A stretch of 56,364 bases of DNA, counting the filler, from Jimgerdemannia flammicorona (lineage: Eukaryota): the NCBI GenBank assembly GCA_003990765.1. It is 2 parts of 2 records of this genome, joined end to end, with 100 filler letters (N's around TTAATTAATTAA, not from the genome) between each part and the next. Parts side by side here need not be neighbours in the genome. Positions count along the whole stretch, not along the records: positions 28,237 to 56,364 come from RBNJ01000583.1; 1 more part is not named here. One strand, 5' to 3'. The notes under the pieces were generated by a model. The model worked only from the letters and a program-made list of their open reading frames with translations, made no database searches and was not told the DNA's origin. The position numbers and the translations under genes were made by a program. Shown in pieces: positions 6,251-54,844 of this stretch (position 1 is the stretch's first letter; each line of letters opens with the position of its first letter).

Positions 6251-6329
6251 TAAGAAGACTAGTGAATCTTCTAAACTAGTCACTGTATTGTCCAAAGATA
6301 CATCTGTCAATCCTACTACTAGTCAATCT

Positions 6330-6728
6330 AAGCTCAAGATCAAGAAGCTTTATCTGAAGGCCCAGACCTCTCAATATTAAATAGAAAAAGTCATTGGTCT
6401 TAACCTATACTCTGTCAAATAAGTCATAATTCCAGCTAAGGGCCAAACTCTGGTATCTACTAGAATTGCAGTCCAATATCTTGGTCAGAATTACACCATA
6501 GTTAGGACTCAGTATCAAATATTATTTAGATATAGTTGCTAGAGTTATTGATCCAGACTTTTGAGGACAAGTTCAAGTTCTGCTTGTCAACCAGAAGGAT
6601 CAAAACTACACAGTCAAGGAAGGAGACCAAGTCATGTAAATTATCTTAGAAAAGCCAGTCAACCTATGATTACAGAAGTCCAAGAACTCTCTGAAACTAA
6701 ATGAGATCAAAAAGGTTTTGATAGCACT
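6330..6728 (+). pseudogene. dut: dUTPase domain between gag and protease
   Basis: All five motifs, degenerate: IGLNLYS (AGLDL), RITP*LGLS (RIAPRSGL), ARVIDPDF*GQV (GVIDxDYRG), KEGDQVM*II (GDRIAQ), ETK*DQKGFDST (RGxxGFGST). Confidence 0.9.
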
Positions 6729-6769
6729 AATCAAGCAGCAAGTCTTACTAAAAATCAAGCTCAAGCTAT

Positions 6770-10942: not shown

Positions 10943-10973
10943 GGATTGATTGAGAACCAACCGTATTTTTATT

Positions 10974-13900: not shown

Positions 13901-14630
13901 GGAGTTCAACATTCATGATGGCATCGAATGCCAAAGGGGACCAGACCAGGATCTGTGGCCTAGTGGTTGGCAAGGAGTTGGAATTGGTGAGGAGTGGGAC
14001 TGGCATGGGGTTTGGACCTGGAGTGCCACAGTGAAAAATTGGATGCCACCGAAGTACTGGATAGTCTGGTGGCATGTGCTGAGGAGGAATGTGATGCTTA
14101 ACTTCTGCTCAGAACACCTTGTTGTCGGGGGCTGCTTTGACTGTGAGGAGTGCCATAATGTAGGGCAGGAAGGGGGATTGGTACAGATGCCAGAACATTG
14201 GCTAGGAGAGTGTGAGGTGTTGGGAGACTTTTGGCAGGCCATTGGGGACCACTTGGGGGTAAGGTGTAGGGATGATGATGTACAGGGGAGGTGGGAGGAC
14301 CTGAGGGATCGATTGATAGGAGGGGTAGGGGAGGAGTGGATTACACTAGGCTGGGTGTTGGCTATTTGGGTTGGGCTGGCCGGCCACTGGCTATTTGTAT
14401 TTGAGGAGAGGGAGCGACAGAGCTTGGAGAGCCAGTTAGCAAGATAGCAGTTCCTTATGGAGGATACCTTGACAGGCTGGTGGCATGGTTGAGGGCTGCA
14501 GGGGGGTCGGAGGCACTGCTTGGTGGTGAAAATCTGTGGTCAGAGTGGTGGGAGAGTTGGAGTTGTTGGTGAGAGAGTGGTCTTTATATGTGAAGAGGTG
14601 GAGTGGGGCCCCCTGATGGGGATCGGTTAG
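10974..14630 (+). pseudogene. LINE-A ORF2: APE endonuclease, RT, C-terminal Cys/His motif
   Basis: SLNVNGL, GGDFNMV, RIDWIL, SDH; NWRPIMLL, FLDQEKAYD, GVPQGDPLSP, AFADNM; CEEC...EHWLGEC. Several in-frame stops. Confidence 0.95.
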
Positions 14631-14702
14631 TGGATGGGGATATTGTATACTTATTCATAGACTGGTAATAAAGACGGAGTCCAAGGGACTATAAAATAAA
14701 AA

Positions 14703-19554: not shown

Positions 19555-22500
19555 AATATTGCTGCCCAACTTCTCTCTAATAGCCTGATCAATGATCTTC
19601 TGAATTCTGAGAGAACTTCTACTCTCTTCAACACCTCCTCCAGTCAAACATACTGGATTCTGTTATATACCTTCTCCTGGTCTAGAAAAACTAGCTGTCT
19701 AATGATCTCTGCAGCCCATATATCTTCAATAACTCCATATACTCAAGCTGTTCTATCTCTTATCAAATATCCCCCAATGAAATCTTGCTATTCAGCCTCT
19801 AGTATCTGCTGAGCCACCCCTTATAGCCTAGCCATCAGTATCTTTGTCACTAGCTTGTGATCTATATCTAAAAGCATAATTAGCCTTCTATTTTTCCACT
19901 CCTCCTGTCTCCCCTTATTCTTAAACAGCAAGGTTACCAGTCTTAGTTTCTGTCTTCCAATCTACTCTCCAGAACTGATAATATCATTGTATATTTATAC
20001 CATTTCCTCTAATATCAACTCTATACCTGTCATTTTCTTCCAGAAATCCCAAGGTAGTCTATTCTCCTCAAGAGCTATTCTGAGACTTATTGTTGCCAAG
20101 ACTCTACAGATCTCCCCCCCTTATATCAGAGCCCTAAGATCCCCTAGACCCTCTATCAGATCTAGGTACCAGTCCTCCAGATATTGCTTGATATTCAATA
20201 TATCTTTCCTGTCTTTCTTCTTACACTATAAATATCTCCACCTTGAGCTCAACTAATCCAAGATCTCTGGGGTTCTAACTACTGTCTCCTCTACTTTACT
20301 TAATACCCCCTCCTATCTTTGCCTCATCCTCTTTACTTGAAGAAGCCTTGATAGGAACTTCATGGGCCTCTCCTTCTCTCCTTTATTCTGCTATCTCAAA
20401 TAGGCTGCCATCCTCTTTATCTATAAGACTTCCTCTTACCTCAGCAACTCCTTCAGCTCCTTTACCTCAAGCCAGACCCACTGAACTCTTTAGTTCTCTT
20501 TCTCTCTATTATTCTACAGATTGGCTCAGATCAATAGCAACTTCTCCAGTCTCTAAGAAGTCCACCTTAGTTACGTTCTCCTCTTATTGTTCTTTACCTT
20601 CTCTGCCTCTCTTCAGAACCTCTGAGCATCTGATTTTAAATGCCTCCACTGGTCTCTAATTTCCTACCCCCTCACCCTCCAACTAAGAATCCTAAAATAT
20701 ATATCTACCACTCATATATTCTATTAGAAGAGCTCTCTCAGTAATGAGGTATTTAGATACTAATGTCCAGATCCCTCCTCATTTCCCCCAAATCTCCCAT
20801 AATTAAGCAGACTTCAATAATCAGACTACAGACACCAAATCATCTTCAAAGGACTCCAGACATCCTCACCCCAGTACTCTACAGTTAAGATCCAATCTAT
20901 CCTTGAGCCTAACCCTGCCACCCAGTGAGTATAGACTCTGTGATCTCTCTATCCAAGTTGCTCTGCATCTATTAAAGAGCTCAATCTCTCAATCTCCTCC
21001 TAATCTTCAATACCCCTACTTCTGTCTATCATCTCTCTCCCTCCATCAGTCCTGTCCAACAGCCTATTGTGAATTATGTTAAAGTCTCTATCCAAACAGT
21101 CAATCTCTATCTCAGCCAGCACTCTTGTATTCCAAAGTTCTTATATCTATTCTACTCACTCTTCTCTTTCTGCTGGACAATAGTAGGACTCAATAGTCAA
21201 GAGGCTTTAGCCCAGTCTCTACCATATCCTCTATATTACTCTGCTACTCCAATGTTCAATATCTTCAATATTTCCTTTGCTCTTCTTAACCAAAATATCT
21301 ACCTAACTCTGCCAGACAGCTGCTCCACTCCATTCTCTTATCCAGTCTAGTTTATCTAAGTTCACATTATATCCAACATCCTGTAGCAGAAACAGTACTT
21401 CTAGTTCCTTTAACTAGCAGAAAATATTCTGATACCTCACTGTACCCATAACTCATTGATATTTAAAGATAGAATTCTAGTTATACTATTCATATTGAAT
21501 AAATATTATAGAGAAGGTCACTCACTCTACAGTTCTATACTCACTATATCTCTAACAATATCTAAGTTCCTCTCTGCTTCAAACTCCTCAGCCACCCCCT
21601 GCTAGGTGTCCAGAGCCAGTAAGATCTTCTGATAGTTCTCACTATCCACAGTCTCTATATTAGACCAGTACTCCTTACACACTATCTGCCACTTTGCCAA
21701 CCCCTTTCTAGGGCCCCACAGATAGATTGTATAGTTATTTACAATTCTCATCAGCTCGGCTTCCTTATTTCTATTAACTTCATACTTCTCAGCCTCCAGC
21801 AGACCTGTCATTAGCTTATCTCAAATCTTCTATACTATCTCTTCTTATAGTATCTCCCCTCAGTGCCTCTCACTAATTACTCTGAAGTCCACCTTATCTA
21901 ACTCATCAGCTGTAATATCTGTCAATATCTTCTACAACTATCTCTCCTCCCCTATAGTCTCATCCACTTTTTAGCCCACCTTCTACCCTCTAGCCCCTTG
22001 ACCATCATCAGCATTCTCTCTTACCAACTCATCTCAGATCTCCTCCAGTATGTTCTACAGCTCATCATTTCTCTTACTCTCTGCCAGCACATTATACTAA
22101 ATATGAGTCACCTCCACCATCACCTTATTCTTAACTATTGTATCTTATATTGGATCTGTTCAGGCCATCTCTACCACCATCTCCTTCTTTCCTACCCAAG
22201 TACTGGTCTGTGATCCAACTTCATCAGTAGCTTTTTCTCCCTCTGACTGCTCTCCCAGCTTCATCAGTAGATCCTTCTCTTCTGTGCCTTCTTTTAGGCA
22301 GCCCAATTCAATCTCAATCTCTTGCTATTCACTATCTCTACCATCATCTTGACCTCATACTCCTTCCAGACTAACCTCCTCTTCTCAATAGCTCTAGCCA
22401 ATCTTTTCTCTTTCTAGTATTCTCTTTATCCACCAGTCTCACTCTGATATTTATATCTCCAGTCTGGAACTCCATACTATCCTAGACCTGAAAGCCCACA

Positions 22501-23385
22501 TCTACTATATCACTATACTTCTTAATAATGTCGACAATCAGCCCTCTGGCCTCCTCTTCTTCACTATTGGTACATTTGCTACTACTAGCTAGACTACCCT
22601 AGAGTCTCAGTATAAGCACCAAGTCATAGAGATTACTATCCTACCAATTACTACACCTTTCTTCAGTACCCCCAACATTAACTCCTCCTCTTCAAACCCC
22701 ACCTCAATCCCCTCCAACTTCTTCAAGAACTTCACTGAGGCAGCTTCTTTTACCTTCTGGGTCAGCAGTTCTAGAACTATTCTCACTATAACTACTAGAC
22801 CCTGGAAGTACAATGTGATGGTAAATTTGGATACTGATTTCTTAAGTAATAGTATCACCACCAGGCCCATTACACCTTTAGCCAGGTCCTCAGGCCTCAT
22901 ACTCTGTCCTAGTTCAGCCTCACTATCAGCTATTATATTTGGATTTTTTTTCCAAATTAGCAGTTCTCTCTCTATCAGCAGTCTCACTCTCCCCAGCTAC
23001 TACTTCCCCAGCCCTATCACCACTACTTCATAAAGCCTCCTTACCAGATTCTGCATCTCTCTCCTTCCTCTTATCACTCTATAGCCAGGTCTCTAGGCCT
23101 ATTAACAAGTACCCAGCCTTGACCTTGTTAGTGAAGCTCACTCTTCCAGTTCTCTATCTCCTAGCACTACCTCCTTCTCTCTCATGTCCTTCAGCCAGCA
23201 AGTTCTGCATACTTCTCTCTAAGCCATAACTTCTCTCTACATACTATTAGTCAAATATACTAGAGCTACTCTGCCTAGTATGCTTCTCTAATTACTTATT
23301 AATTGCTATATTATTATTATCTTTGCTTCAAAAACTGTGTTGAAAGTATTATCAGAAGTTTGTATAATGTGAATTGTAGTGAGGC
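19555..23385 (-). mobile_element. LINE-B: older, 3'-truncated L1/Tx1 copy
   Basis: Minus strand aligns with LINE-A 5' UTR, ORF1 (22607..22987), APE, and RT up to just past DQEKVY; heavily mutated; no tail. Confidence 0.88.
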
Positions 23386-23521: not shown

Positions 23522-24090
23522 AGATATAAACTAGAATATTATTTATTATATGATTGGAAAGACATTTGAATTGAAGAGGCTAAAGACAAACTTTATACAG
23601 TTTATAATAGAAACTATACTTCTCTATCTAAAGCAATTAATCAAATAAGTTCTGAAGATCATGAAGAAGTAGAAGATGACATCAATACTATACTATATGA
23701 ATATATATTTAACAAAAGACAAAAACTGATAACAAATCCTGAGCAAAAGGTAGATATTTATTTGAAAAGTAAACCTGTTAAATTTTAAGCAGAAGTTGAT
23801 ATATTATCTTGGTAGCAAGTGAGTTGGGAATTTTTATTCAAATTAGATCAATTTAAAATATAATTTGAGTTTCTCTAATTGATTTAATTGATTGAGAATA
23901 TTAGGGCTATAGTAGAGATTTTCCAAATTTAGCAAAAATAATATATAACTACTTAGCTATCTCAGCAATAAGTGCTCTAATTGAGAGAGTTTTTTCAAGT
24001 AATAAAGATCTTATAATAGCTAAAAGAAGTGCTTTAGACTCTGAAATAATTCATAAATATATGTGTTTAAAGGCATAGCAATCAGTCTAG
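23522..24090 (+). pseudogene. hAT transposase C-terminal dimerisation domain with an intron
   Basis: VDIYLKSKP...DILSW*Q, intron GTGAGT...TTAG (about 23819-23903), FPNLAKI..NYLAISAISALIERVFSS.KDLI.AKRSALDSE...MCLKA*. Confidence 0.85.
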
Positions 24091-28136: not shown

Positions 28137-28236
28137 NNNNNNNNNNNNNNNNNNNNNNNNNNNNNNNNNNNNNNNNNNNNTTAATTAATTAANNNNNNNN
28201 NNNNNNNNNNNNNNNNNNNNNNNNNNNNNNNNNNNN
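28137..28236. other. Artificial 100-nt linker (44 N + TTAATTAATTAA + 44 N)
   Basis: Six-frame stop spacer flanked by Ns; not biological. Confidence 0.97.
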
Positions 28237-37821: not shown

Positions 37822-39726
37822 AGTCATCTGACTCTCTACTAGCCCCTGGGCCAGCCCTATACTTATTGTACCAAAGAAAGGAGGATGGAGACTCTGTGTG
37901 GATTACAGGAAACTCAATTCAGTCACTGAGAAGGATGCTTATCCTTTGCCCAGAATTGATGACCTTTTGGATCAGTTACAGAATGCCAGATACTTCAGCA
38001 GTATACAGCCTTTCTTGCTCTAGGAAAACTATTTGAATACCTCTGAATACCCTTTGGACTCTGCAATGCACCCCCCACCTTTCAGAGGATGATGAATTCA
38101 GTCTATGCCCCTTTGATCCACTACTGCCTGATTGTATATATGGATGATTCCAACATCTATTCAGCAAATTTTGAAGAATACCTGCACCACCTAGAGGAAT
38201 TTTTCAAGCTCACCCACAAGAATCACTTGAGACTGAATGCAAAGAAATGTATGACTACAGCACCAATCCTTGTGTGCCCCAATCTACAGAAGCCATTCAT
38301 CTTGTATACAGATACTTCCAAAGATGGTCTAGGAGCAGTTCTAGCCCAAGAAGGATCTGACCAATAGTACTATATGTTAGCTTATACAAGCAGAGCTACC
38401 AATCAGCAGCAGATGAACTATGGTAGCACAAAACTGGAATGTCTTGCAGTCATATGGGCAGTCACCCTGTTCAAGCATTATATCATCAGAAAAAGGTTCA
38501 CCCTGATCACAGACTATGTGGCCCTCAAATGGCTATTCAACTACAAGGAACCTGCCAGAATCTTAGCCCACTGGATCCTTATCCTTCAGGATTACAAAAT
38601 CACCATTATTCACAAAGCAGGGAAAGCTCACAACAATATTGATGTACTTTCCCACCAGCCCCAATAAACCAGAAGAAGGGTGTCCTGAGGAACCACACCC
38701 TAAAGGAAGCTCCTCAGACCATCAAGGAACAAGAAGATCTCATCTGACAAGAACATCAGAAAGCCCACCAAGGACAGACAAGCACAGAAGACAAGATTCG
38801 AAAACAATATCAACATTGGCCCCATCTCAGAACTCAAGTTCAAGACATTATTCAGAAATGTGATATCTGCCAGAAGTACCAAGGAAAGAAGAACTATCAA
38901 GCCCCTTTGCAACTGATTCCCCCACCCACTCACATCCTTCAAAGATAGGGAGTAGATGTAATTGGACCTCTACCAGTTATACCAAGAAGAAACAAATATA
39001 TCCTTGTATTTGTAGAACATCTGACCAAGTGGTCTGAGGCTTTCCCAATGGAAATCACAGATGCCCTAACCATCATTGGCCTTCTCCATAGACTCACACT
39101 CAGATATAGACCCTCAGAAGAACTCATCTCTGACTGAGGCACAGAATATGTCAATAACATAATCACAAGTTATGCTCAAATTCACAAGATATATTTCAAA
39201 TGGACCACATCATACTATTCCCAGACCAATGGCATGACAGAAAGGATGAACCAGACCATCAAGAAAGGACTTGCCTGAGTCAATTCTACCAATTGGGACC
39301 TCTGCTTATCTGAGATCCTATGGGAAATTCAAAACACCCCTACTGCCTCCACCAAAGAAAAGCCATTCAAAATGATGTTTGCCAAGAAAACCAGAACTAC
39401 TGACCATGAGAATCTTGGAGACCTCCTCAAAAAGGTAGAACAGTTATGTAATCAAGCCTGAGGACAGATTATCAAAGCCCAAGAAAGACAAAAGAAGTAC
39501 TATAACCAAAAATGGAAGGATCAAGAGATCAAGATTGGAGATCAAGTACTAGTTTGGAGAAGCATGATTGAAATGAATTTTGCCACCAAACTGGAACCCA
39601 AATGGGAAGGACCTTATCTTGTATACAACATCAGAGGGACTAGTATTTATTTAAGAAGCATGAATAGATGAACCCTCAGAACACCAGTACACATCAATTG
39701 CCTCAAGATATATCTTTCCCTACATC

Positions 39727-40155
39727 ATGAATCAGAGAGTTGACAACTGCCTTCAGACTCTTATCCTCAGCTCATTTTAATCACTGCTGGTACCTCTACC
39801 CCAATTCTGAGAAGTCAATGGGAACACTCTCCAGAAGATCCAGATTCATCAAGAGAATCTTGTCCTGGTCAGATAATTGCTACAGGTCCATCAACTTCAG
39901 GCCCACTATGCAATTGGGGAACAATTGTAGAACCTCCCAGTCCCAGAACAAATATATATCAGAAATACTACAGGACTATCAAGGAGAGATGTTACTGCCG
40001 CCAACAGGCTCTACACCCTTTACAAGCGAAATCCTGCAGCTCTGATACAAGCACAATTCTCCTGTTATGATACATGAGGAATGAACCTAGCCACCTACCT
40101 GAGCATTGTCAATGCTGTTGAAATCCTATTTCCAGAAAAAGAAGAAATGGAGTGA
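39727..40155 (+). pseudogene. Gypsy-2 accessory ORF3 (about 142 codons, unknown function)
   Basis: ATG at integrase end; single frame, only transition-type stops; homologous to 53805-54248. Confidence 0.7.
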
Positions 40156-40271
40156 CCATGGTACAGATAATGAAGATGATGGAACAGGTATTGATTCAGA
40201 AGATGCTTACCCACACTGGAATGATGACTAAAGGATAGTCTGAGGATAGACCATCCTTTAGTGGGGGCTGA

Positions 40272-41570
40272 TGTGACAAACCAGAATGTACTACCTGAAT
40301 TATACCTTAGCCAGATAACATGAACAATTAGCTAGATGATATGAACACACAGCATAGTAACCAGCAACCATTGCTGTGGAAACCATATAAATAGCCAGAC
40401 TACCAGATAAGGTATATCTGTGCAGGACCTGCACACCTGTACCAGACCTGCACACTTGTGCTGGATCTGCACAACTTGCTATAGATAGCAAATCTATAGT
40501 TAGCCACATAGTAATCAGATAGCAACCAACTTGTATAAATTATCCCCAAGACAAGAGTGAATAAACCTCAGTCCAAAATACAAACACCAAAGAAGCCTCT
40601 AAAGATTGAGCATTGGTCCCCTTTCTACTCCGGTCCACTTTCTGATACAAAGAAGAGTTTGTTATATTTTTGGTTCGCTTGCCAGATAAGTCTGAAGAAT
40701 CTGAGTTTGCCACCAAGTTCAAGGAAGAACTTTGCTACCATTTCCAAGTCATTTGCCACATTCCCAGAGAGCCCTATTCTTGCTACAAGCCAGTCTGTTG
40801 ATGCAACTTCGCAGTAGAGCCAGTCTATTGATGCAACTCTGTGCAAACAAAGCCAGTCTTGATGTAACTTGCCAAGAATCTGAGTTAATTCCCAGTTGAA
40901 GCCGCCATTCTCAAGTTATCTGCATTCCCAGTTGAAGCCGATTCAGGAAGGATCCATGCCACCCAAGTTATTATTCCCAGAAGCCCGCCGATTCAGGAAG
41001 AATTCGCGACCTCCAGATCATTCGTGGTTCCCAGTGAGCCCAAGATATTGAGATACCCGCCGCCAGTATTATTCCCCGTAATAAGAAATCCATGCCATAC
41101 ATTCCCAGTGAGCCAAATCGAGTTATCTGCCAGAAATCGCATACTTTTAGAGATCGTCGTGCTACATGAAGATCACCGCTGCCAAAGAAAGAAACTGCTA
41201 AATTGCCAGACCATCATGCCTAAGAAACTCACGCTACACAAGAGATCATCATGCAGAAATTGCATACTTTTGGAGATGGCCATCACCCAGGAAGGAAACC
41301 GCTCGTGCTAAACACAAATTCTGCCATTCCCAGTTGACCTGAGAAGGAAACCTGTTCATATACACAAATTGCTGCTACACCCAAGAACCTGTCCCAAAAA
41401 GGAAACCGCTTGCACAGTATCCAGATCTTGACTATTATACCACTAAACACCAAGGACCTCAGGAATCTTAGAACATTTTGTTGCTTTTTGACAAAGTAAC
41501 TGGGGGCTCAAGCCAAACTACATCAACCCCCAACCTTGTAATTTGCCTCCATTGAGCCAGGCACATTACA
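40272..41570 (+). repeat. Gypsy-2 3' LTR (1.3 kb)
   Basis: TGTGAC...ATTACA after PPT; TATA-like GTATAAAT at about 40533 and AATAAA at about 40560. Confidence 0.9.
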
Positions 41571-41807
41571 CTATAAACTAATTAGGGAAATATTATAGTT
41601 TTTATAATATTTTTTATCTATATAATAAGAAATTATTTTTTTAGTATTATAATCTTTAATATTAAAATAAAAAAAACATCTCATTTAGTTTATTTTACAT
41701 TCTTTACTCTATTAATCTTTAAATAAAAAACTAATAGAATAAGTATTTATATAATTCTTTTTTTCTTTTTAACTTTAAAAGAAATTTAAGATTATTATTA
41801 TATATAA

Positions 41808-42254
41808 TGTAATAGTTGATTCAAATTAGGAATAATAATCAGGAGATAGATATTTAATTATAATACCTAAATTCAATTCTTAATATAGTATACTATTATA
41901 GTTAGCAGCCACTCAATCTTACAGTTATACAGATCTCTCAACTATACAAAACTCATAATTGTATAGATTGTCTAGATATATAGATCTCATAAACTATATA
42001 AAATAACTTATAAAAAAAAGAAGTCTTTACCTAGCTACTATATATATAGTTTTTAAACTTATATAAATATTCTTAATATCTAAAGTGAATGAACCTTAGA
42101 TTGAAATAGTTTATATAAAGATATAAGAAATTAGTAAACCTATAGACAGATATATTTTAAACTTACTCACTCTTATATCTGAGAATTCTGAAGAGTCAAA
42201 GAAGAATCAAGTATTTAAAATAAAGAAATCTACTAACTTTCTGCTAGTATATAT
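41808..42254 (+). repeat. Older LTR of the Gypsy-3 family (continues at 54777-54844 with LTR end, PBS and leader)
   Basis: TGTAATAGTTGAT start; 42055-42254 aligns with 42577-42780; 54777-54844 aligns with 42777-42844. Confidence 0.8.
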
Positions 42255-42793
42255 TATAACAGTTGATCTAAATTTAGAATATAAATCAGAGGAATAGATA
42301 TTTGTTCATAGTACCTAAATCTGATTTCCAAATATAATATAGCCTTACAAATAGCAGTCATATTTTGCAAATATAGAAAAACTTTGGCAAATACTAAAGA
42401 TTTTATAGATACTAATATCCTTATAATCACTAAAGATTCTATAGATACTGAAATCCTTGCAATCACTAAAGATTCTATAAATACTAAAATTCTTACAATT
42501 GCTAATAATTCTGCAGATATCAAAAAAATACAACATTTGTAAAAAGTGACTCATAATTCAGCCACCTTATAGCAGCAAACTTGTATAAATATCCCAGTAT
42601 CTAGAGTAAATAAACCTCAGATCAAAATAATTCAAAGTAAAGAGAAAGTAAGAGAACTAGTAAGTCTGCATGCAGATACACTTTGAACTTACCCACCCCT
42701 ATATCCCAAGGACTCTGAGGAGTCAAAGAAGATCAAGTTTTCAAGATATAGAAATCTGACATACTTACCCAGTTACACATCTGCTATATTATA
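42255..42793 (+). repeat. Gypsy-3 5' LTR with 36-bp tandem repeat
   Basis: Unit TAAAGATTCTATAGATACTGAAATCCTTGCAATCAC: 3 full + 1 partial here, 2 full + 1 partial in the 3' LTR. Confidence 0.9.
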
Positions 42794-42849
42794 ACTTGGT
42801 GCCCATTAGTTGATAATTCAAGACAAATCTCTCACTTTCAAGCTGAACA

Positions 42850-44550
42850 ATGAATAACTACTATCACCTAAACAACTATACAAATTGAATCAAAACATCT
42901 AGATAAGATAGGTATAAGATGGTCAGTATTCTACAGATATACAGATATACTTCAAATGAATCAATCATTATCTTCATTAATGATTTTGAATAGTATGCTA
43001 CTGTAAAGACCCTGACAGCAAGACAGCAAGTAGCCCTTATGCTCTTCAGTCTCTAAGGTCCAGCAAGAGCAGCATTTATAGCTGCAACCTATATATATGA
43101 GAAATAATGATGATGCTATACTGACAGCACAAAAGGCTTAGCTCTGAGCTATATACTATATAGATGAGATCAAGTAAGCTCTGAAGGATCAGCTCAATAC
43201 AATATGCCAAGGAATAAGTGAGGATCCAAACACATTCTATACCAGAATCTGATATTAGATAATTCTTACAGATTATACTGATACTATCTAAGATCAAGTA
43301 GCTGAAGAAACCTTTATAAAAAGTATCTATTTAGAGATAACTATAGCCATCTGCTCATTACTAGTGGTTCTAGATCTAGTACAAAAGATCACCTATGCCT
43401 AGTGATATTGGATAGATAGATATCTATAAGATCATATAATGAAAAGAGATACTGAAGTTAGAATCAAAGCAACTAAGACAACTAGTATGATCTCTATCAC
43501 AGTGATTAATTGAAATATACCTCAGCCAAAAACTATTGAGCAATAAAGAAACAGTGATCCTATGGAAGAGCTAGCTAAGAAGTTTTCCAAAATGACTACT
43601 TATCTGAGAGATGTGGTAAAAGAGATCAGAGAAAGAGACTGCCACCTAGTTTAGAAGTTTGCTACTATCTCAAACAAGAATTGAGATACCTGCTATACTT
43701 ATGGAGAAGAAGCCCACTACTTATATGAATTTATAAGTGAGATCAAGTGTAAAGCTCAGTCAAGTAATACTATAAGGAATAAGGAATAGGCCAATACTAA
43801 TACCTTCAAACTAATTAGAGAATTATATAAAGAAGAATGAGAGACCTACTCTGTACAGATTACCAAGAAAGATGTCTGAAAAGAACCCTATAAGAGACCA
43901 CCAGAGAGACCCAAAAAGAACTCAGTTGAGAAACAGATAGAGAGTGCTACAGAAAGCCAAGCTAAAGAAATAGATCAAGATATGGAATTAGAACAGACTG
44001 TCTAAGATATCATCTGAGGAACTACATATCTCAGCCAGCTGGCAGAAATACTTATGTTCAGACAGCAAATGAGATATAGACTTGCTGAGACAACTAAGGA
44101 ACAAGAATGGAAGATAACTGAGATTAACAATATATAAGAAGACTCAGAAAAAGAAAGTAAAGATAATTGCAAGTTCTCTACCTATACAATCTGTCAAATT
44201 GAAGATAGAATCTTTGAAGTCATTATTGATACTAGAGCAGAAGAATGTCTTCTCAGCAAGAAAGCAGCAGACTGCCTAGATTGGAAGGTTGAAGAAGTAA
44301 TCAAATTAGTATTCATTACAGTAGATTGTACAAGAGCCATATCTCTGAAAAAGATCTGAGATATTCCCATCAAGTTTGGAGGAGCAATACTCTCAGTAAA
44401 TATGATTATAACCAATACTACCAACTATGATATTCTCATTGATAACCAGTGGCTTCATAAAGTTAGAGTAATAATTAATCTCAATATCTAGAAGATGAAA
44501 ATTATCTACAGAGGTCAGAAGATGCAAATTCCCATCAATGTCAATAAAGA
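42850..44550 (+). pseudogene. Gypsy-3 gag (CCHC at about 43690) and protease
   Basis: TCYTYGEEAHY..E knuckle; FEVIIDTRAEECLLS (DTG); YDILIDNQWL. Confidence 0.82.
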
Positions 44551-44884
44551 AGTACTGCCTGAGATAGAGGAAGAAAAAAGTGAACAAGAAGAAGTCTACA
44601 TGGTGACTATTCTGAAAAAGAAGAAAAAAGTCAGATAGATCAGTGAAGAAGAATAGTACAAAAGGATCATTGAAGGATATATGCTACAAGGAGTCTGCTC
44701 TCATGGAAGTAAGATGTACTATATGAAACATATTGATAATTGCTACCAGTATATCAGCAGAATCAAGAAAATCCACTATAAAAGAAGACAGAAGACTCTT
44801 GAGAAATAGGCAGAATAAGAAAAGGAGGAAGAAGAGGATGATAAACTACTAGCCCTCCCAGAGAACAGTGATAATGAAGAAGAA

Positions 44885-45304
44885 ATCAAGGTCAAGATTC
44901 AGAAAATCCACTCTGATGCAGTTTTACCAGAATACAAGTTAGAGAATATAGCTGGAATAGATATTACTAAGTAGAGAAAACTGTACTAGAGCTCCAGATA
45001 ATCACCCTGCTTGCAACTAGTCTGGAAATGACCATTCCAAAGGACTATGTATATCAGGATCCTCAAAACAAGAAATAGCCTGGCTAAGAGTGAGATTACT
45101 ATTGAAGGAGGAGTCATTGATTCAGACTATATTAGAGAAATACTACTCATTACTAGGAACCACAATCTTATGATTCCATTTCCTATCAGAAAGAAGGACC
45201 AATTAGTACAAATATTAATCTTCTTGGTTCTTCAGCCAAAGATCATGAAAGTTGAGAAGTTGGAGGAAATAAAAAGAGAAAGAAAAGGATTTGGATCTAT
45301 TGGA
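44885..45304 (+). pseudogene. dut: dUTPase domain between protease and RT
   Basis: KIHSDAVLPEY...AGIDI, RNSLA, EGGVIDSDYIREI, KKDQLVQI, KRERKGFGSIG. Confidence 0.92.
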
Positions 45305-45399
45305 AGAGGAATATTTGCCAGTATCAAGATTACTGAATTAGACCACAAGAAGGAGAAAACTACAAACAAGTATAGCTATACTATTGAAAATAAATTCTC

Positions 45400-47165
45400 A
45401 CTCAAAAAGAAACTCAAGAAGATACTCTATGAATTTGAGGATGTTCTGACTACAGACTTCAAGAATATTAAGAGAAAGACTCCACACTACTATCATGATA
45501 TAGATATAAGAGACACTAAATCAATCTACTAAAAAGTAAGGCCAATTCTACCAGTCTATTACAAATGGCTCAGAGAAGAAATCAAGCAGATGGAAGAAGT
45601 TGGTATTATTAAAAAAGCTAGCAGCCCTTGGGTTTTACCAGTCATATTGGTCCTAAAAAAGAAAGTAATCCAGGAGAATTTGCTCCAAAGCTCTGCACTG
45701 ATTACAGGAAGCTCAACCTGGCTACAAAGAAGGATCACCAACCACTGCCCCTTATCAGTGACATTCTTGTAACTCTAGGAGATGAAGTACAGTATTACAG
45801 TATCTTAAAACTATACTCAGAATTCTATCAGATTGACCTCACTAAAGCAGTAAGTAAAAAAATCAGCCTTCATTACCCCAGACAGAACCTATGTCTATCT
45901 GTGAATATCATTTGAAATATATAATGTACTAGTATGCTTTTAGCAAATAATGAATAAAATCTTCTACTATAATATGAGAAGATTGATGATAGTTTATATA
46001 GATGATGTTATTATCTATAGCAAGACAGCCAAAGAACATCTACAGTATATCTAGCAGATGATAGAGAAGCTAAGAAAGTGTGGCCTATATATCAAGTCTA
46101 AGAAGTACAAGTTTGCAGAAATTAAGATCTCCTATCTTGATCATATCATTAACTGAGATAGAATACATATAGACCTGCTCAATATTCAAGCAGTAGTAGT
46201 ATACTCAAGGCCAACTATAGTCACTGAAACCCAAGTCTTCATGGGACTCACCTTATATTACTGCAGATTTATTAGAGGATTCTTCAATATTGCAGGCCCA
46301 ATTTATGAACTCAATAAGAAAGTATCAAGTTCTGATAGACTAGTAGGCAACAAAAAGCATTTGATGAGCTCAAGATTAGACTGACTCAAGCACCCATCCT
46401 CAGAAGACCCAATTGGACCCAAGAATTTATCTTGTAGATAGATATAAGTATATAAGAACTAGAAGTAGTTCTGGCTCAGAAGAAAGATAAAGTAGAGTAT
46501 ATCATTACATCTAAGCTAAGGAATCCAAGGAGCAGAAAAGAAATATAAATTCTATAAGTTGGAATATCTTGTAGTTATCTGGGTTATAGAAAAGTTTCAC
46601 TACTATCTTGCTGGAAGACACTTCACCATCCAGATAGATTATTCAGCCCTCACCTAGCTATCCACTACTGGACAACCTAAGGAATCTATGCCAGATAGAT
46701 TATGAAATTGTCAGCCTATGACATAACTATATACACTACTCTGTAAAAACTAATACTAATATAGATGCCCTCTCATAGATACTTCAAAGGACCCCAACCA
46801 ACAAATCCACCATGAATAAAGAACTGAACTATGGAATTATCACCTATCTGAGACAGTGAAAGATACCCCAACATCCAGAAGAATAGACACAAAACAATTA
46901 TCAACAGAACATGGAAATAATTCAAGACCAATAGGGAAATACTGAAGAAAGAAAACCTACTAGTTATACTCAAATATAAGAAGAAGTAAACAATAAAATC
47001 AGTATATGAACTTGGCCATCTAGGGGAAATAAATATCTATGAAAAAGTAAGAAGAACAATATGGTGGTCATAAATGGAGAAAGATATTAAATAATTTATC
47101 AAGACCTATAACAGATATCAGAAACAGAAGCAAGACTAACAAAATCAGACCCCAGGATCAGCACA

Positions 47166-47171
<6 letters not shown>
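45400..47171 (+). pseudogene. pol: Gypsy-3 RT, RNase H and integrase zinc-binding region
   Basis: SSPWVLPVILV, KLCTDYRKLNLATKKDHQPLPLI, VYIDDVIIYS, TQAPILRRP, HLGE...IKT(C)NR(C)QK. Confidence 0.9.
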
Positions 47172-47209
<38 letters not shown>

Positions 47210-50200
47210 GTCCCTTGGACTGCCCTTTATTACCAATGTCTATAGTTCTAACAATACAATGTCACTCCCACCCTCAACCAATGCCCTGTGGATCCAACCC
47301 TCCCCCCTCAACCTCTCTCTGCCCAAGCACCACCCAGTTACCTACTACCCGAATCCTCCCACCACTCTTCCAGGAGATACACTACATATACTAAACCCCT
47401 GCGGTACCCCCCACCCAGCCCCCAACCTCGCCACCAGCTATTCAAAATGTCCAATAGCAACCATTCCCAATATACCACCTTGTCCCTAACCCCAACCCAC
47501 TACTCCTCCTCAAAGACATGAACCCAATGTCTAGCTAACCCAACCCACACCAACCAAGGGTCAGCCATTCATCCCCAACCCCACCCACCAGTTGCTGGTG
47601 GAGCCCTCCCCATCTCCCCCCTTCTTCTCCCTCCAAGGCACTCAACCCTAACTGGTCCAAAATACATCTCCAAAACTCCTCCAAAACTTTGCACTCGCCA
47701 AGCCAATGTTCAGGCATTTGTACCATGCCTCCCTCCTGACCAATGTTGAAACAATCCTCACACTCAAACACTCCACCAGCCACCAAGTGCCCAGACTGAT
47801 AGTTCAACATCACATTCTGCCATAGGACACACCACTACACCACCAAGAACTTGGGGGGCAGCCACTGCCTCACCCTTTTGCTCCAAAGCCAGAGTCTATT
47901 CCAATCCCACTCCTCACCAATTCCAACCCTCTGCCAGGCTTCGGGCCACAGGTCCCCACCTAGGCCCCATAGATACTCCAAACCCTTGCTATGCTGAAAG
48001 TTCTCCACCAGAACACCACCCAGTAGAAGCCTGTCCCACTGCCACATCCGCAGTCCCCAATTCTCCTCGGCTTCCTCACCTCACCACTGAAGACCGATTT
48101 TCTTAGTGCCATCCACCACCCCCCACCAGAAGCCTGTAAACCACATCCTCCTGCTCCCATCCAAGGCCACCATTGTGAGCAGGTCACCCAAGTCACCACA
48201 TGGGGAGTACCGAACCTCCTACAACCTCTGCATAAGTGGCACCCACTGCCGACCCCTAAGCTCACTAGCCCTCCACAACCACCAAGCTCTCAAACATTGA
48301 AGCCACTTAGTAAAGTCCACTAAGCCCAGCCCACCTCTTTCCAAGAGCAGTGTGAGCACCTCCCAACCCACCTGGCTCCACTACCCTCCCCAGATCCATG
48401 ACCTCACCATCTTCAACAGCCCCTTGACCACCCAGGTTGGGAAATTCAAATGATATCCCACATACCACAGCTTCAGCATCCAATATACATTTGGCACCAT
48501 CACCCTTCTGGCTAGTGACATATGCCAACCTCCCCATTGCAGCAGAACATTTCCCCACTCCAGAAGTTGTTGGTCCCACCATGCCTGGGGAAGAAGAGAT
48601 CCAAATACTGAGAAGTAGATCCCCAAATAATGCACTGGTTCACCAGCTGGTATAACTGTCCCAATGACATCACCACTAACAATTCCAGCACCCAGCACCA
48701 GAGTCTCACATTTGTGCCAGTTAGTTAAGCACCAGAACCCCTCTCATAATATTCCACAGACCTCCATAACTCCCCCACATCCACCAAGGAGCCCAGCCCA
48801 ACCACCATATCATCAGCAAAGGCCCCCACCTTCCAATTAATCCCTAAAATGTCCAAACCCCCAATCTGATGCCAAATTCTGTCCAGTAGAGACTCCAGGG
48901 AAAGGGCATACCATATGGGCGACAAGGGGTCTCCTTGCAGTACCCCATGTCCCAGGGGAAAGGTCATCTCCCTGTGGCCATTGATGACCAATGCTGCCTG
49001 ACTGTCCTCCAAGAGACTGATCAACGATCCTCAGAACCCTGGGGGGATACCAATCTGTCTCAGCACTCTCTCCAGCCATATCCTCCACACTTTATCATAA
49101 GCCTTCTCTTGGTCCAGAAACATCAATCTGCCATCCACCCCTGTCACCCAGGCACCTTCAATCACTCCATGTACCCAAGCTGTCCCATCTCAAATCAACT
49201 GGCCACCAACAAACCCACGCTGCTCCACACCAAGCACCTGCTGAGCAATTCCTTGCAGCCTCATCACCAAAACCTTGGTCACCAGCTTTCAGTCCATGTC
49301 AAGAAGTATAATTGGCCACCAGTTCTTTCAGTCCTCTCACCTCCCCTTATTCTTATAGAGCAAGGAGACTAGCCCTAAGTGCTGTCCTCCAATCCAAGCA
49401 CCAGACCAAAGAACTCCATCACATATAGCCATCATTTCCTCTAGCACTCACCCACCCCAGCCATCTTCTGCCAAAAATCCCAGAGAAGGTCATCCTCTCC
49501 CAGAGCTGTCCCCTTGCTTGTCAAGGCCACAACCCTGTGAATTTCCTTACCACTCACCAGGTCCTCCAATGCCCCAAGACCCATTGCAGGGTCTGGGTGC
49601 CAATCCCCCAGCTGCCTTTCAATGTCCAGAGCATCCATTCCTCCTTCCTCCTCACTCCATAGATTCCCCCATCTAGCTCTCAACAGGCCCAGAATAGCTG
49701 GAGTCCCTACCACCAGCTCACCATTCGCATTCAGAACTCCCTCCCACCGCTGCTTCATTCGTCGTGCCTGTAACAACTATGACAAAAACCTAGTAGGCCT
49801 CTCCCCCTCCTCAAGCCCCTGCCACTGCAGTCAGGCCACTATTCTCTGCAACTTCACCTCCTCCTCCCTTTATAACACTTCTTTAAGCTCCTCCACCTCC
49901 TGCCGGATCCTCACCATGCACCAATCAGTCATGTCCCCATCTTCCAGCATACCTGCCCATCTCTCCATGAGTGTTGCCAGATGCCGTGAGGCCCACAGCA
50001 CCCTCCACCTTCGCTGGGCACACTTTCCTTTCCCAGCTTCTCTCCAATACCCCTGAGCATTTGCCTTCAGCCTTCTTCAGCAGTCCCCAATCTCAAGGCC
50101 TTGTTCCCGCTACCTACTGATATTTCCAACCACCTCTATTTCCCAACCCTCCCACAACCCCCTATCCTTCAATAAGGAAGAATTTAGCCACCAATGTCCA

Positions 50201-52960
50201 GGCCCATCCTCATTTCCCCCAAACCTCCCCCCTCCAAGCAGCCCCTAGTGATCAGACAATGGACACCAAACTACTTCCAGTGCTGACCAGACATCTGCTC
50301 CCCAACACTCTGCTGTCAAAACCCAGTCAATCCTAGAGCCCAGCCCTGCCACCCAGTGGGTGTACACCTGCCTATTGGCCCAAAAATGTCTTCCTGAGTC
50401 CACTAAAGAACTCAACCTCTCTGTCTCCAACCAGTCACCCAACCCACCACTTTCACCCTGCATGCCTCTCCCTCCATCTGTTATATCCATCTTCTTATCC
50501 CATACTATATTGAAATTACCCCCCATATAGTCCAGCCCAACTTCTCCCAATACACCAGCCTCTTTCAATCTGCGAATCCAATCCACCCTCTCCCCTCTCT
50601 CAGCTGGGCAGTAGCAAGACCCAACCATCAATGAGCCCCATCCAGGCCTCTTCCACACTTCCCACACCACTCAAGAACCCCAATGTCCAATGTCCTCAAT
50701 GTCTCCCATCCCTTTCCAAATGAGAATACACACTCTCCCCTGCCATACTGCTGCACCCCCCTATTCCTTAGTCCAATCCTGTAAGTCCACATCTGCCTCA
50801 TAACGAACATCCTGTAACAAGAAGAGGTCCGCATCCAGTCTCTTAAGCCATCCAAATATATACTTCCTTTTAGCCACCCCCTGTAACCCATTAATATTCA
50901 ATGAGAATATCCTAGTCATACTGTTCATATTGAATAAATGTTGCAATAGAGACCCCATCCTAGAATTCCATGCTCATCTCATCCCCAGCCAGATCCAAGT
51001 GCCATTCAGCTTCCAAGTCACCCTCCACATTAGCCTGAGCATCCAGTGCCTCCAAGATTTCCTGACATTCCACCCCATCCACTATCTCCATATCTGCCTG
51101 ATAATCCAAGCAGACTGTGCACCACTTCTCTAGTCCCTTCCTTGAGTTCCACAAGAATAGTGCCCTGTTGCTTGCAATCCTCCTAAGTTCCTCCTTCCTC
51201 TGATCATTGACTTGATATTTAACTGACTCCAGGAGAACAGCCAGAATCTTGTTTCTCATCTTCCTCAGCACCTCCTCCCCCCATAGGATCTCCTCCCAAT
51301 GCCTTTCTTCCATCACCCTGAAATTCTCACCCTCCAGCTCCTCAGCTGCTACCCCTTCCAGGGTCTTCCACATCCACTTCTCCTCATCCACTACCTCCAC
51401 TGCACTCTTAGCAATTTGTCCCCTATCCACCTCAGGGTCCACCAGTGTGCTCCTCCGCACTGACTCATCCCACTCCTCATCTGGCACATCTAGCAGCTCC
51501 TCCTCCCCCTCAGCTCCACCTGGGACACTATACTGGGGGTGCACACCTTCACTCATATCTACATCCGCCTCCATATTGCCTACCCTCTCCTCCTCCACTC
51601 CCAGCTGAGCCCTGCTCTGGGTCCTTTCACCCCCCTCAGCCCAGGTGCTCTCCTGCAATCCTGCACCCCTTTCCCCTGAACTTCCACTGGCCCTACCCCC
51701 ACCCAACCTTGCCAGCAGCTCCTTCTGGATTTTCCTCCCCTGCAACTTCTCCCAGGCCCCCTTCTCCATTCGGACCCTCTTCCTATCCACCTCCCCCACC
51801 ACTATCCTGGCCTCAAACTCCTTCCATGCCAATCTCCTCCTTGTGACTGCTCCTTCTAGATCCTCCAGAGCCACCAACATGTCTTTCTCCTCCTCCTGGG
51901 TCCCCTTCACCCTCGTGATCTTATACTCCACCGGTCCCCACCTCAGCATCACTGGCCAGTCCCTTTACTTCCCTGAACTCTCCCTCCCAGCCAGCCTCAC
52001 CCTGACATCTACATCACTAGTCCAAAGCTCCGTACCCTCCCAGACCTTAAACCCAACATCCACAATCTCTCCATACTCTCTGATCGCCTCCACAACTAAC
52101 TCCCTGGTCCTCTCCTTCGACACTATAGGGAGATCCAGCACTGTCAACTGCACCACTCAAGGGTCCCAGCGTATGCACCTGGCCATAGGGATGACAACTC
52201 CACCAACCATCACCCCCTTCTCCAAGGCCACCAGCAAGGTGTCTTCCTCCTCAAACCCCACCTCGACTCCTTCCTTCCCCTTCAGAAACTTCACCAATGT
52301 AGCTCCCTTTACTTCCTGTGCCACCAGCCCCAAAAGCATCCTTGCTGTCACTGCCAAGCCCCAGAAACACATCATAACAGTGAATTCTGACCTTGACTTC
52401 TTGAGTAACAGGGCCGACACCATGCCCATAACCCCATCTGTCAGGTCCCTGGGCCTCGTGCTCACTCTATGTCCTGAATTATCAACCACTGTCACATCTG
52501 GATTTTTTGCCAGATCCCCAGTCACAGCCCCATCACCAGTCACATCTCCAGCCCCTACTCTGGCTTCTCCCCCACCCTCAGCAACTCCCCTGGGTGCACC
52601 TCCCAGTCCCCTAGCAGCAGCTGTCGATGCTTTTCTCAGGCCCAGCCAACCATCTAGACCTGAGGCCATCTTCCCCATTCTGACCTTGTCAGCAAAGGTC
52701 AACCTCTCTCCTCCTCTCTGCCTCAGACTGCCCCTCCCTCCACCGCCAGGACCACGGCTAGCCATTGTGGCCCCCGGCATCCCCAAACCATCTCCCCTCC
52801 TTCCCACCTGCTGCCAGCCAAAGGCACCATCACTCCCCTGGCCAGTACGCTCACCAGTTCGATCATTGCTGTCCATATCAATAGTCATCAGACACCAAAA
52901 ATATAGTAAAAAGTGTTGTCTGAGTCTTGTGTCACCCAAATATTACCAGTGAAAGATGAT
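47172..52960 (-). mobile_element. LINE-C: full-length L1/Tx1-clade element inside Gypsy-3 integrase
   Basis: TSD GATCAGCACACTC(TTT) at 47156-47171 / 52961-52976; poly(A) tail; ORF1 about 52876-50960; ORF2 from about 50928 (SLNINGL, SDH, QGDPLSP, AFADDM); 5' UTR homologous to LINE-A. Confidence 0.96.
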
Positions 52961-52976
52961 GATCAGCACACTCTTT

Positions 52977-53795
52977 ATACACATTACAATAGATATAATT
53001 GGTCCCCTACTCTTGACTTTGAATAATAACTAATATATCATTGTCATCATAGACCTTTTTATAAAATAGATAGAGACAGGACCCCTCAAAGAAGCCAATG
53101 TACAGTCAATCACTGATTTCTTCCACAAAGAAATTATTTGCTGATTCAGGACCCCAATACAAGTAATAACAGACAGAGGAACAGAATTTATAAACCAGTT
53201 CTTTGAGGTTCTCTATAAGAAGTATAAGATCTGGCATATTCAGACTATAGCTTATCACCTTTAGGGAAATAGATAAGCAGAAGAACCAACAAGACTCTCA
53301 AAAATATCATCATCAAGATCTGCAATAACTATGAAAACTGAGACTACTATCTGCTAATAACATTATCTGCTCTTTAAGATAGCTAATTATAAAGTATCTA
53401 TTTACCTCTCAGAAGATACTGTTTAGAGAAGAACATTTTTAAGAAATCTTATTTTTCAATAGAGATACTATATGGAAATACATGGACTCAGAGATACAGA
53501 GACTATACCAAATTAGAAAGAAGGCTGAAGATTATATAACTAAGGTGTAGACACTATAATAAAATAATGTGAAAAAGATTTACAAGTCTCTGGAGACTAT
53601 CAAGATAAGAGACAAAGTTCTGATATATTAGAAAATAGTAGAAGCTTTATGGTTATAGAAGCTGGAACTTAAGTGAAAAAGACCTTACCTTGTATAAGAT
53701 ATAAAAGGAATCATCTTTTGGCTACAAAAACCTTTAGGCACAATTATCCTCACTACTATTTACTGAAACTAACTCAAGAAATATCATAATTAGCT
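52977..53795 (+). pseudogene. Gypsy-3 integrase core and C-terminus
   Basis: IDIIGPL, IICxFRTPIQVITDRGTEF, AYHL*GN, KLELK*KRPY (GPY). Confidence 0.88.
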
Positions 53796-53804
53796 AGCAA
53801 AGTA

Positions 53805-54248
53805 ATGCCATTGCCTCAAGATTACTAGTACTACATGAGTCATAAAAAGACAGTGGTATTCTACTAAGCCACTAATTATAGACAAATTCTTCAATAGTAT
53901 CCAGAGTATAGGACAGATATACCTATTATGAATCTCATATTCAGAGTCTATCAGAACTGTACCAAGTTCCAGGAATACTTCAAGTTGGGATAGCTACTAA
54001 ACTCAAAGCTGAAAATAGAAAAAGAAGATTAGATCAAAGAATGTCAGCTCTCTTATACTCAGATTACTATCAATAAAAGAGTATATAGGTTATTTAAAGA
54101 AGATGAAACAGCTTGAGCTCATTTCTGAGAAGTAGCTCTAGGAGACTTTGGATATACCAAAAGACAATATTGGGAGAATGTAATGGCACAAATTGTACAG
54201 TATAAGGAGATTCAATTGATCAAGACTTGGGAGTTTGAATAGGAATGA
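53805..54248 (+). pseudogene. Gypsy-3 accessory ORF3 (about 147 codons, unknown function)
   Basis: ATG just after the integrase stop; single frame, transition-type stops only; homologous to 39727-40155. Confidence 0.7.
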
Positions 54249-54269
54249 ATCATCTATTCAGAAGAAAGT

Positions 54270-54776
54270 TATAATAGTTGATCTGAATTAGAAATATGAA
54301 TTAGAGAAATAGATATTTGATTATAGTACCTGAATCCAATTCCCAAATATAGTATAGCTTTATAAATAGCAGCCATATTTTGCAAGTATAGAAAAACTTT
54401 AGCAAATATTAAAGATTCTACAGATACTGAAATCCTTGCAATTGCTAAAGATTCTGCAGATACTGAAATTCTTGTAATTATTAAAGATTCTGTAGATATG
54501 TACTAAAAAATGTAATACTTGTAAAAAGTGACTCACAACTCAGCCACCTTATAGCTAGTAAACTTATAGAAATATCCCCATATCTAGAGTAAATAAACCT
54601 CAGATCAAAATAGTTCAAAGCAAAGAGAAAGCAAGAGAACTAGTAAGTGCATGGACAGATACACTTTGAACTCACCTACTCCTATATCTCAAGAACTCTG
54701 AGGAGTCAAAGAAGATCAAGTTTTCAAGATATAGAAATCTGATATACTTATCTAGTTATGCATCTGCTATGTTATA
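54270..54776 (+). repeat. Gypsy-3 3' LTR
   Basis: Direct repeat of 42255-42793, one 36-bp unit shorter. Confidence 0.9.
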
Positions 54777-54844
54777 ATATCTGCTATATTATAACTTTAT
54801 ATCTATTGGCTAGTAATTCAAGATAAATTCCCCAATTTTAAGCT

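Follow-up and report, generated by a model that had tools for sequence, protein, structure and literature searches.

We describe a third open reading frame (ORF3) downstream of the integrase in two divergent Ty3/Gypsy elements, Gypsy-2 and Gypsy-3, carried by a 56,364-nucleotide stretch of DNA (hereafter the window, made of two parts joined end to end) from Jimgerdemannia flammicorona (assembly GCA_003990765.1). ORF3 is a previously uncharacterised accessory gene common to these two divergent Gypsy families. It is almost certainly a real gene maintained by selection, and the two families of its products, A (Gypsy-2) and B (Gypsy-3), very probably share ancestry, while the two window copies, ORF3-A and ORF3-B, are dead, each carrying transition-type stops and one frameshift. 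We read ORF3 as a true third gene, present in a group of Ty3/Gypsy elements that lack a chromodomain, whose product would act as an adaptor or regulator made by termination-reinitiation, and we give this overall reading a probability of about 0.6. An earlier note on the same DNA had reported, in each element, a frame of about 145 codons between the integrase and the polypurine tract, and had taken it for an old, selected accessory protein with a helix-turn-helix-like pattern; its observation was confirmed in part and its interpretation supported in part, as detailed below.

Decayed copies in the window and their intact relatives

The following features, all on the plus strand, define the two loci (LTR, long terminal repeat; aa, amino acids):

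38724..39730, plus strand: Gypsy-2 integrase with zinc finger, core and SH3-like C-terminus (Pfam Integrase_H2C2, zf-H2C2 and rve on a read-through translation); the ancestral stop, TGA 39728-39730, overlaps the ORF3 start
39727..40231, plus strand: ORF3-A, decayed copy of a 170-172 aa protein, with five internal stops, a frameshift near 40140 and a stop at 40229-40231
40232..40268, plus strand: purine-rich stretch, putative polypurine tract, between ORF3-A and the presumed 3′ LTR (read from the sequence)
52989..53793, plus strand: Gypsy-3 integrase core and C-terminus, with a TAG stop at 53791-53793 (Pfam rve; tblastn between the Gypsy-2 and Gypsy-3 integrases)
53794..54242, plus strand: ORF3-B, decayed copy of a 153 aa protein, with a frameshift near 53940 and a stop at 54240-54242

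The family-A hidden Markov model (HMM) matched the ORF3-A locus with 218 bits. That of family B matched in two different frames, at 53809-53940 with 25.6 bits and at 53940-54170 with 103.5 bits, and the extent of ORF3-B was also given by alignment to the intact proteins P0008 and P0012-P0019. The N-terminal third of ORF3-B, from 53794 to about 53940, lies in the integrase frame and the rest in the frame described earlier. Past the ORF3-A frameshift, located in an A-rich run near 40140, translation yields an acidic, Trp-containing tail as found in the relatives; alignment to two metagenome loci, L001 and L002, also revealed a 1-base deletion in the window Gypsy-2 just 5′ of the ORF3 ATG. The two translations of the earlier note were recovered letter for letter, including the spacing of 19 residues, and its frames were right (for Gypsy-3 only from about 53940), but ORF3-A continues past 40155 and ORF3-B starts at 53794. 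The ATG at 53805, which had been taken as the Gypsy-3 start, proved to be out of frame, and so did the first three 'stops' of that frame.

The five internal stops of ORF3-A correspond to Gln or Arg-type codons in intact relatives, and by codon reading six of the seven true-frame stops of ORF3-B are explicable by a single transition. Thus most stops fit the description of frames broken only by transition-type stops, which fails for the frameshift in each copy and for the remaining ORF3-B stop. The other two frames of ORF3-A are open over 104 and 108 codons (39731-40070) while the true one holds five stops, so that an ORF finder would choose a wrong frame; moreover, since the protein is Gln-rich (11.7%), C-to-T decay would hit the real frame preferentially. 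Decayed, transition-mutated copies of this kind, with stops in the true frame and wrong frames open, are a warning for annotation. Metagenome pieces match portions of the Gypsy-3 integrase end, of ORF3 and of the LTR with 80-95% likeness (X1, 101; X2, 21; X3, 1; X4, 0), and in X1 transitions account for 125 of the 136 differences; at about 150 nucleotides each, these pieces are too short to settle the B junction.

Searching with the Gypsy-2 frame gave intact homologues for 7 of the 14 candidates, with 49-86% identity (E 5.8e-70 to 3.3e-17). The Gypsy-3 frame led to P0008, and P0008 in turn retrieved family-B proteins for all nine candidates. Full-length members obtained from cluster look-ups are separate proteins of 170-172 aa (A) and 153 aa (B). 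Met occupies the canonical start column in 11 of 12 family-A proteins examined, and the same 'MA' start was found in 9 of 13 family-B proteins. An exhaustive search of 1.84 billion representatives with profile A returned five matches at E<=0.001, including four true clusters with proteins of 88-157 aa; family B was not retrieved by it. P0011 (5298 aa), also matched by profile A, was rejected as a spurious repetitive protein, and was excluded from the final profiles together with P0010 (whose second half diverges and looks frameshifted), P0020, P0022, P0025, P0027, P0029-P0031 and P0034. Viral contigs contained no relatives of family A or B.

Family-A ORF3 lies directly 3′ of a Gypsy integrase at both metagenome loci. 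L002 is an intact relative with dUTPase, reverse transcriptase (RT), RNase H and integrase, and L001 is decayed.

We then compared the family-A copies codon by codon. The ratio of nonsynonymous to synonymous divergence (dN/dS, Nei-Gojobori) was 0.09-0.15 in the ORF3-A frame, compared with 0.7-2.1 for the two alternative frames and 0.13-0.24 for the C-terminus of integrase; these ratios are approximate because dS is saturated (proportion of synonymous differences, pS, 0.66-0.73), but the frame-to-frame contrast holds despite this saturation. Differences were in excess at third codon positions, with 22/83, 16/82 and 49/82 at positions 1, 2 and 3 between L001 and L002, and 31/118, 22/118 and 62/118 between the window and L001. 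With intact separate proteins in both families and a ratio of about 0.1, well below 1, in the ORF3 frame only (family A), the proposal of a selected accessory protein holds. Between L001 and L002 the integrase C-terminus is close (pS 0.116) and ORF3 distant (pS 0.734; proportion of nonsynonymous differences, pN, 0.223), a contrast suggesting that sub-lineages recombined near the integrase/ORF3 junction, or else that the overlap is under extra constraint.

Relationship between families A and B

All nine frame pairs between the A and B copies of the window were compared with shuffled controls. Only the pair proposed earlier rose above chance (Smith-Waterman score 49, z 4.8, 0/300 shuffles), the other eight giving z values from -1.3 to +1.3; in a larger set, a score of 49 was reached by 3/3000 shuffles. 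As had been stated, the two post-integrase stretches share no DNA similarity (blastn, word 7, E<=1). Since tblastn between the two decayed copies also gave zero matches at E<=10, the two window copies alone are weak evidence, and the strong evidence comes from the intact relatives.

The family-A HMM scored 19.4 bits on the intact B protein P0008, a value reached by none of 5000 composition-matched shuffles (maximum 13.2). On the decayed window B frame it scored 8.1 bits (reached by 5/5000 shuffles), and 0.9 and 0.5 on the other two frames. Profile-profile comparison gave 14% for A against the window B copy, hhalign gave 74% with nine sequences in each family, and with the fuller sets the probability rose to 83% (P 8.8e-6, 53 columns, 28% identity), all of these alignments being in the register of the earlier note. 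A local control put the observed score at 39.9, whereas 200 column-shuffled B profiles averaged 12.4 and went no higher than 20.2 (0/200), and the reversed profile scored 9.8. With MAFFT, 18 of 18 sequences aligned in collinear order, beginning in the N-terminal third and continuing to where the helical core ends, and in a six-frame scan of the window the top non-self match of the B profile was the A locus.

The position of ORF3 is also common to both elements, between the integrase stop and the polypurine tract/LTR. The Pol proteins of Gypsy-2 and Gypsy-3 are only about 25-43% identical in matched segments; therefore ORF3 either predates the split of these elements or moved between them, and the word 'old' applied to a protein common to both is justified by the homology of the two families. 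Purifying selection has preserved ORF3 in two Gypsy families whose polymerases are this far apart; evidently, the gene is needed by the element. That the A-B similarity arose by chance and the frames are not genes, as the tblastn null and the modest raw pair score might suggest, is refuted by the existence of intact homologues and by a dN/dS that is low in one frame only, and has a negligible probability given that the family-A HMM score on P0008, the hhalign and column-shuffle controls and the third-position excess also count against it.

Product, expression and possible function of ORF3

The structure of the product was predicted with AlphaFold (AF2). The merged A+B alignment gave a pLDDT of 74.4 and a pTM of 0.62, with core blocks at 83-90, and family A alone a pLDDT of 56.5, a gain on merging that speaks for the homology of A and B. 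Helices were predicted at residues 2-16, 34-69, 72-82, 86-99, 103-108, 113-117 and 121-134, followed by a disordered tail. On this model, ORF3 encodes a soluble, non-enzymatic protein of 153-172 aa, in which some 130 residues form an all-alpha core and the C-terminal peptide is acidic. The net charge is -1 to +3 for the core and -15 to -18 for the family-A tail. A Trp at position -4 followed by acidic residues ends all complete C-termini (4/4 in A and 4/4 in B) and is the only tail feature common to both families; in the family-A tail, Trp residues are flanked by small and acidic residues, and two of them stand 24-25 residues apart. No transmembrane-like segment was detected in seven proteins (maximum Kyte-Doolittle 19-residue mean 1.18), which together with the soluble helical model upholds the view that ORF3 is not an envelope.

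None of the 18 members had a Pfam match above cut-off at E<=1, DUF1016, Chromo, PMD and Transposase_28 included. The best E value was 0.2 for a sequence profile against PDB, 1.1 for Foldseek against PDB and 0.18 against BFVD (none at E<=0.001). VIA-align over 48,161 chains peaked at Z 5.7 over 52 residues, covering the N-terminal hairpin only, and a second fold comparison reached Z 4.8 at best; neighbours in the ESM Atlas were unnamed clusters or had TM <= 0.37. ORF3 is thus in no described protein family or fold detectable by the tools used. Keyword literature searches, which were word-based and not sequence-based and had Repbase/Dfam outside their scope, found no description of the gene.

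We propose the following scheme. On the full-length element RNA, ORF3 follows the integrase stop and precedes the polypurine tract; ribosomes would finish integrase and then reinitiate at the overlapping or adjacent ORF3 start. The helical core would be the part that grips nucleic acid or some component of the element, and the acidic Trp tail would serve as a docking site for a host factor. Such an adaptor or regulator fits better than an enzyme or an envelope because the helical core is devoid of catalytic or metal-binding signatures and the Trp-acidic end is conserved. As to the more specific roles, transcriptional or regulatory action of the acidic tail may be envisaged but is on balance unlikely, silencing antagonism is less likely again, and some other function takes the rest of the odds. 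A regulator or anti-silencing factor, as the earlier note had put forward, is in this sense possible.

The junction bears on the mode of expression. In family A, integrase stop and ORF3 start overlap as ATGA in two of the three DNA copies (window and L001), ORF3-A being in the -1 frame relative to integrase. In the window B copy, the codon that lines up with the start Met in the 153-aa proteins comes straight after the integrase stop, in the same frame. The ATGA overlap resembles the AUGA / UAAUG stop-restart signals of victoriviruses and hypoviruses; according to PMC6631646, AUGA stop/restart is established in fungal victoriviruses and works jointly with an upstream pseudoknot. Their pseudoknot is required, whereas for ORF3-A we could predict only a weak hairpin, and L002 carries ATAA, as judged from sequence alone. 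Expression of ORF3 by stop-restart is therefore put forward tentatively, at somewhat less than even odds, and spliced or subgenomic RNA or a recoded fusion remain as alternatives. If it operates, the ORF3-A junction would offer a case of stop-restart translation in a retroelement.

Several points weigh against the proposed scheme. Pfam, PDB and fold searches gave no match that would link the protein to a role, and the tail is much shorter in B than in A. Ile replaces the start Met in L002 and P0006 (in L002 because ATAA stands in place of ATGA), and the remaining 4 of 13 family-B proteins begin at an internal Met. In L002, P0004 and P0006 the ORF3-A frame is open for about 50 codons upstream, across the integrase end, and this open frame together with the lost Met would also fit a fusion or an upstream start. 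The hairpin given by RNAalifold on three sequences is weak (-8.5 kcal/mol), by a method blind to pseudoknots. DNA of relatives was available for family A only, from two loci (one of them decayed), and the B junction was read from a single decayed copy, that of the window. Proteins in databases are necessarily open ORFs, hence an ascertainment bias, and the sequence occurs in soil-metagenome contigs only, with small shares, and in no RNA run.

Alternatively, ORF3 could be an integrase cofactor or targeting factor, that is, a free-standing replacement for the chromodomain. It would bind integrase and, by its acidic Trp tail, anchor the pre-integration complex at a host protein of chromatin or transcription. 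ORF3 comes directly after the SH3-like (GPY/F) end of integrase, where chromoviruses have their targeting domain, and the Trp-acidic C-terminal peptide is conserved. Pfam Chromo gave zero matches at E<=10 in any frame of the Gypsy-2 and Gypsy-3 regions, an absence that is weakly tested because the scan also missed the decayed chromodomain-like stretch which we identified by eye after the Gypsy-1 integrase. A chromodomain hidden in another Gypsy-2 frame was dropped, given the absence of Pfam support and the dN/dS values of the other frames. ORF3 itself differs from a chromodomain in being a separate ORF with its own Met and in being predicted all-alpha instead of beta-sheet. We consider such a cofactor unlikely.

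The same place after integrase could also be that of a C-terminal Pol module, fused by recoding through a -1 shift in A and stop read-through in B, as the chromodomain-like stretch is fused in Gypsy-1. The upstream-open frame and the Ile residues described above agree with this, as does window ORF3-B, which lies in the integrase frame with one stop between. However, no slippery heptamer of the X XXY YYZ type occurs in the overlap (0/3 sequences), and -1 frameshifting was rejected on this ground; the frame relation is unlike in A (-1, overlapping) and B (same frame), and start Met residues prevail in both families at the counts given above. The 1.84 billion representatives yielded zero long fused forms, which is weak evidence because gene callers cannot call recoded fusions. 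Overall, we regard a fused Pol module as quite unlikely.

Foamy virus Tas/Bel1 and human T-lymphotropic virus (HTLV) Tax are encoded by small regulatory ORFs near the 3′ LTR. By analogy, ORF3 might be a regulatory gene of the kind found in complex retroviruses, expressed through the ATGA stop-restart, its tail serving as an Argonaute hook that blunts silencing or as an activation domain that drives the LTR. ORF3 is likewise small and near the 3′ LTR, and its acidic, aromatic-containing tail resembles an acidic activation region, but searches of BFVD and PDB gave no sequence or fold similarity. The odds of such a gene appear low, about those of the fused module. If true, a transposon would here carry a gene for counter-defence or transactivation, retained from a time before the two Gypsy families separated.

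The earlier note had also seen in ORF3 a helix-turn-helix (HTH) nucleic-acid-binding regulator, related to the N-termini of DUF1016/YhcG. The motif on which this was based corresponds in the model to helix 72-82, a short Gly/Ser turn and helix 86-99, so that the conserved centre does have the predicted order helix, turn, helix. The best HTH-type fold matches, SopB (Z 3.4) and Noc (Z 2.8), both DNA-binding domains of the ParB type, are faint and within noise, and HTH_3 occurs in 15% of the members of one Atlas neighbour cluster. On the other hand, DUF1016 or HTH matches above the Pfam cut-off number 0/18 at E<=1. The sole HTH-named entry, HTH_Tnp_Mu_2, appeared in 2/18 members (best E 0.031; 14.8 bits, below the cut-off of 20.5) and covers N-terminal residues 5-63, outside the motif. 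A single basic residue is conserved across A and B in the putative recognition helix, and the core is near-neutral. The DUF1016/HTH proposal is thus unsupported, and we hold it to be very unlikely, although an HTH of a more generic kind could be present.

Compared with known extra genes, ORF3 shares with the Tat eORFs, the Athila env-like ORFs and the fungal 'add. ORF' the status of an extra ORF of unknown function beyond gag/pol. Plant Tat elements carry eORFs with PMD or Tr28 domains (PMC4408406); ORF3 differs in being small, helical and acidic-tailed, and PMD and Transposase_28 were found in 0/18 members. An 'add. ORF of unknown function' is named for some fungal elements in the Figure 3 legend of PMC2864245, and identity with ORF3 is possible, the comparison being with the legend and not with sequences. 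Like the Env of errantiviruses and retroviruses, ORF3 lies between pol and the 3′ LTR, but it differs in its size and predicted soluble all-alpha fold, with neither a signal peptide nor a transmembrane-like segment. The brtn gene of Boty/BcGypsy1 is antisense, whereas ORF3 is sense and abuts the integrase stop. The likeness here, by description only, is that of a fungal Gypsy element with an additional gene, brtn being the extra gene of Boty/BcGypsy1 in Botrytis cinerea (PMC8365987).

Extra genes of LTR retrotransposons are the raw material of retroviral env and regulatory genes. To our knowledge, few have been reported from organisms other than plants and animals, and hardly any with evidence of selection. 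ORF3 is in this respect a tractable candidate for a transposon-encoded host-interaction factor.

Other features of the window

The window is AT-rich and repeat-dense throughout, and its three Ty3/Gypsy elements, Gypsy-1, Gypsy-2 and Gypsy-3, are all on the plus strand. The remaining features are as follows (LINE, long interspersed nuclear element):

~5760-8560, plus strand: Gypsy-1 capsid, dUTPase, protease, RT and RNase H, with the integrase from 14922
37996-38595, plus strand: Gypsy-2 RT and RNase H; the element is 5′-truncated
42254..42796, plus strand: Gypsy-3 5′ LTR, direct repeat with 54269 onward (84-91%)
47080..52950, minus strand: LINE, GC-rich and strand-skewed, with RT and a poly(A) end (RVT_1 on the minus strand, poly-T on the plus strand, composition)
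54269..54800, plus strand: Gypsy-3 3′ LTR, direct repeat with the 5′ LTR

No 5′ LTR of Gypsy-2 was found in the window. The Gypsy-3 protease, dUTPase, RT, RNase H and integrase zinc finger extend to about 47130, and the integrase core resumes from 52989: the LINE at 47080..52950 is inserted in the integrase, splitting the element, and is no part of ORF3. Two runs of 44 N each occupy 28137-28180 and 28193-28236.

We observed three GC-rich LINE copies in all, at 9000-14700 (plus), 47080-52950 (minus) and 19800-23300 (minus), with a GC content of 0.4-0.57, GC skew up to +/-0.55 and a poly(A) end, in surroundings of 20-35% GC. The first, which splits Gypsy-1, has RVT_1 and an endonuclease with ORFs of 388, 291 and 626 aa, and seems far less decayed than the interrupted Gypsy copies; the second, in Gypsy-3, has RVT_1 only, and the third gave zero Pfam matches. 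The insertions in Gypsy-1 (about 9000) and Gypsy-3 (about 47170) both fall between the integrase zinc finger and the catalytic core, about 25-30 codons apart by frame reading and in opposite orientation. This shared region could be a coincidence or a target preference.

At 23570-24070 (plus) lies a remnant of the C-terminus of a hAT transposase (Dimer_Tnp_hAT, E 5.6e-6). A weak match of the ORF3 profile at 23576-23671 (E 0.043) was rejected, as it corresponds to the C-terminal part of this remnant.

A dUTPase is present in all three Gypsy lineages, including Gypsy-3 and L002, the intact relative of Gypsy-2, but its placement differs: between capsid and protease in Gypsy-1 (6462-6681), between protease and RT in Gypsy-3 (44918-45298) and upstream of RT in L002 (3-851 of that locus). 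Finally, both Gypsy-3 LTRs contain 36-base tandem repeats (42387-42519 and 54402-54498). The sequence past the 3′ LTR (54779-54844) is 77% like that past the 5′ LTR (42779-42844), the primer-binding-site region included, and a second Gypsy-3 copy may thus follow in tandem, sharing the LTR.

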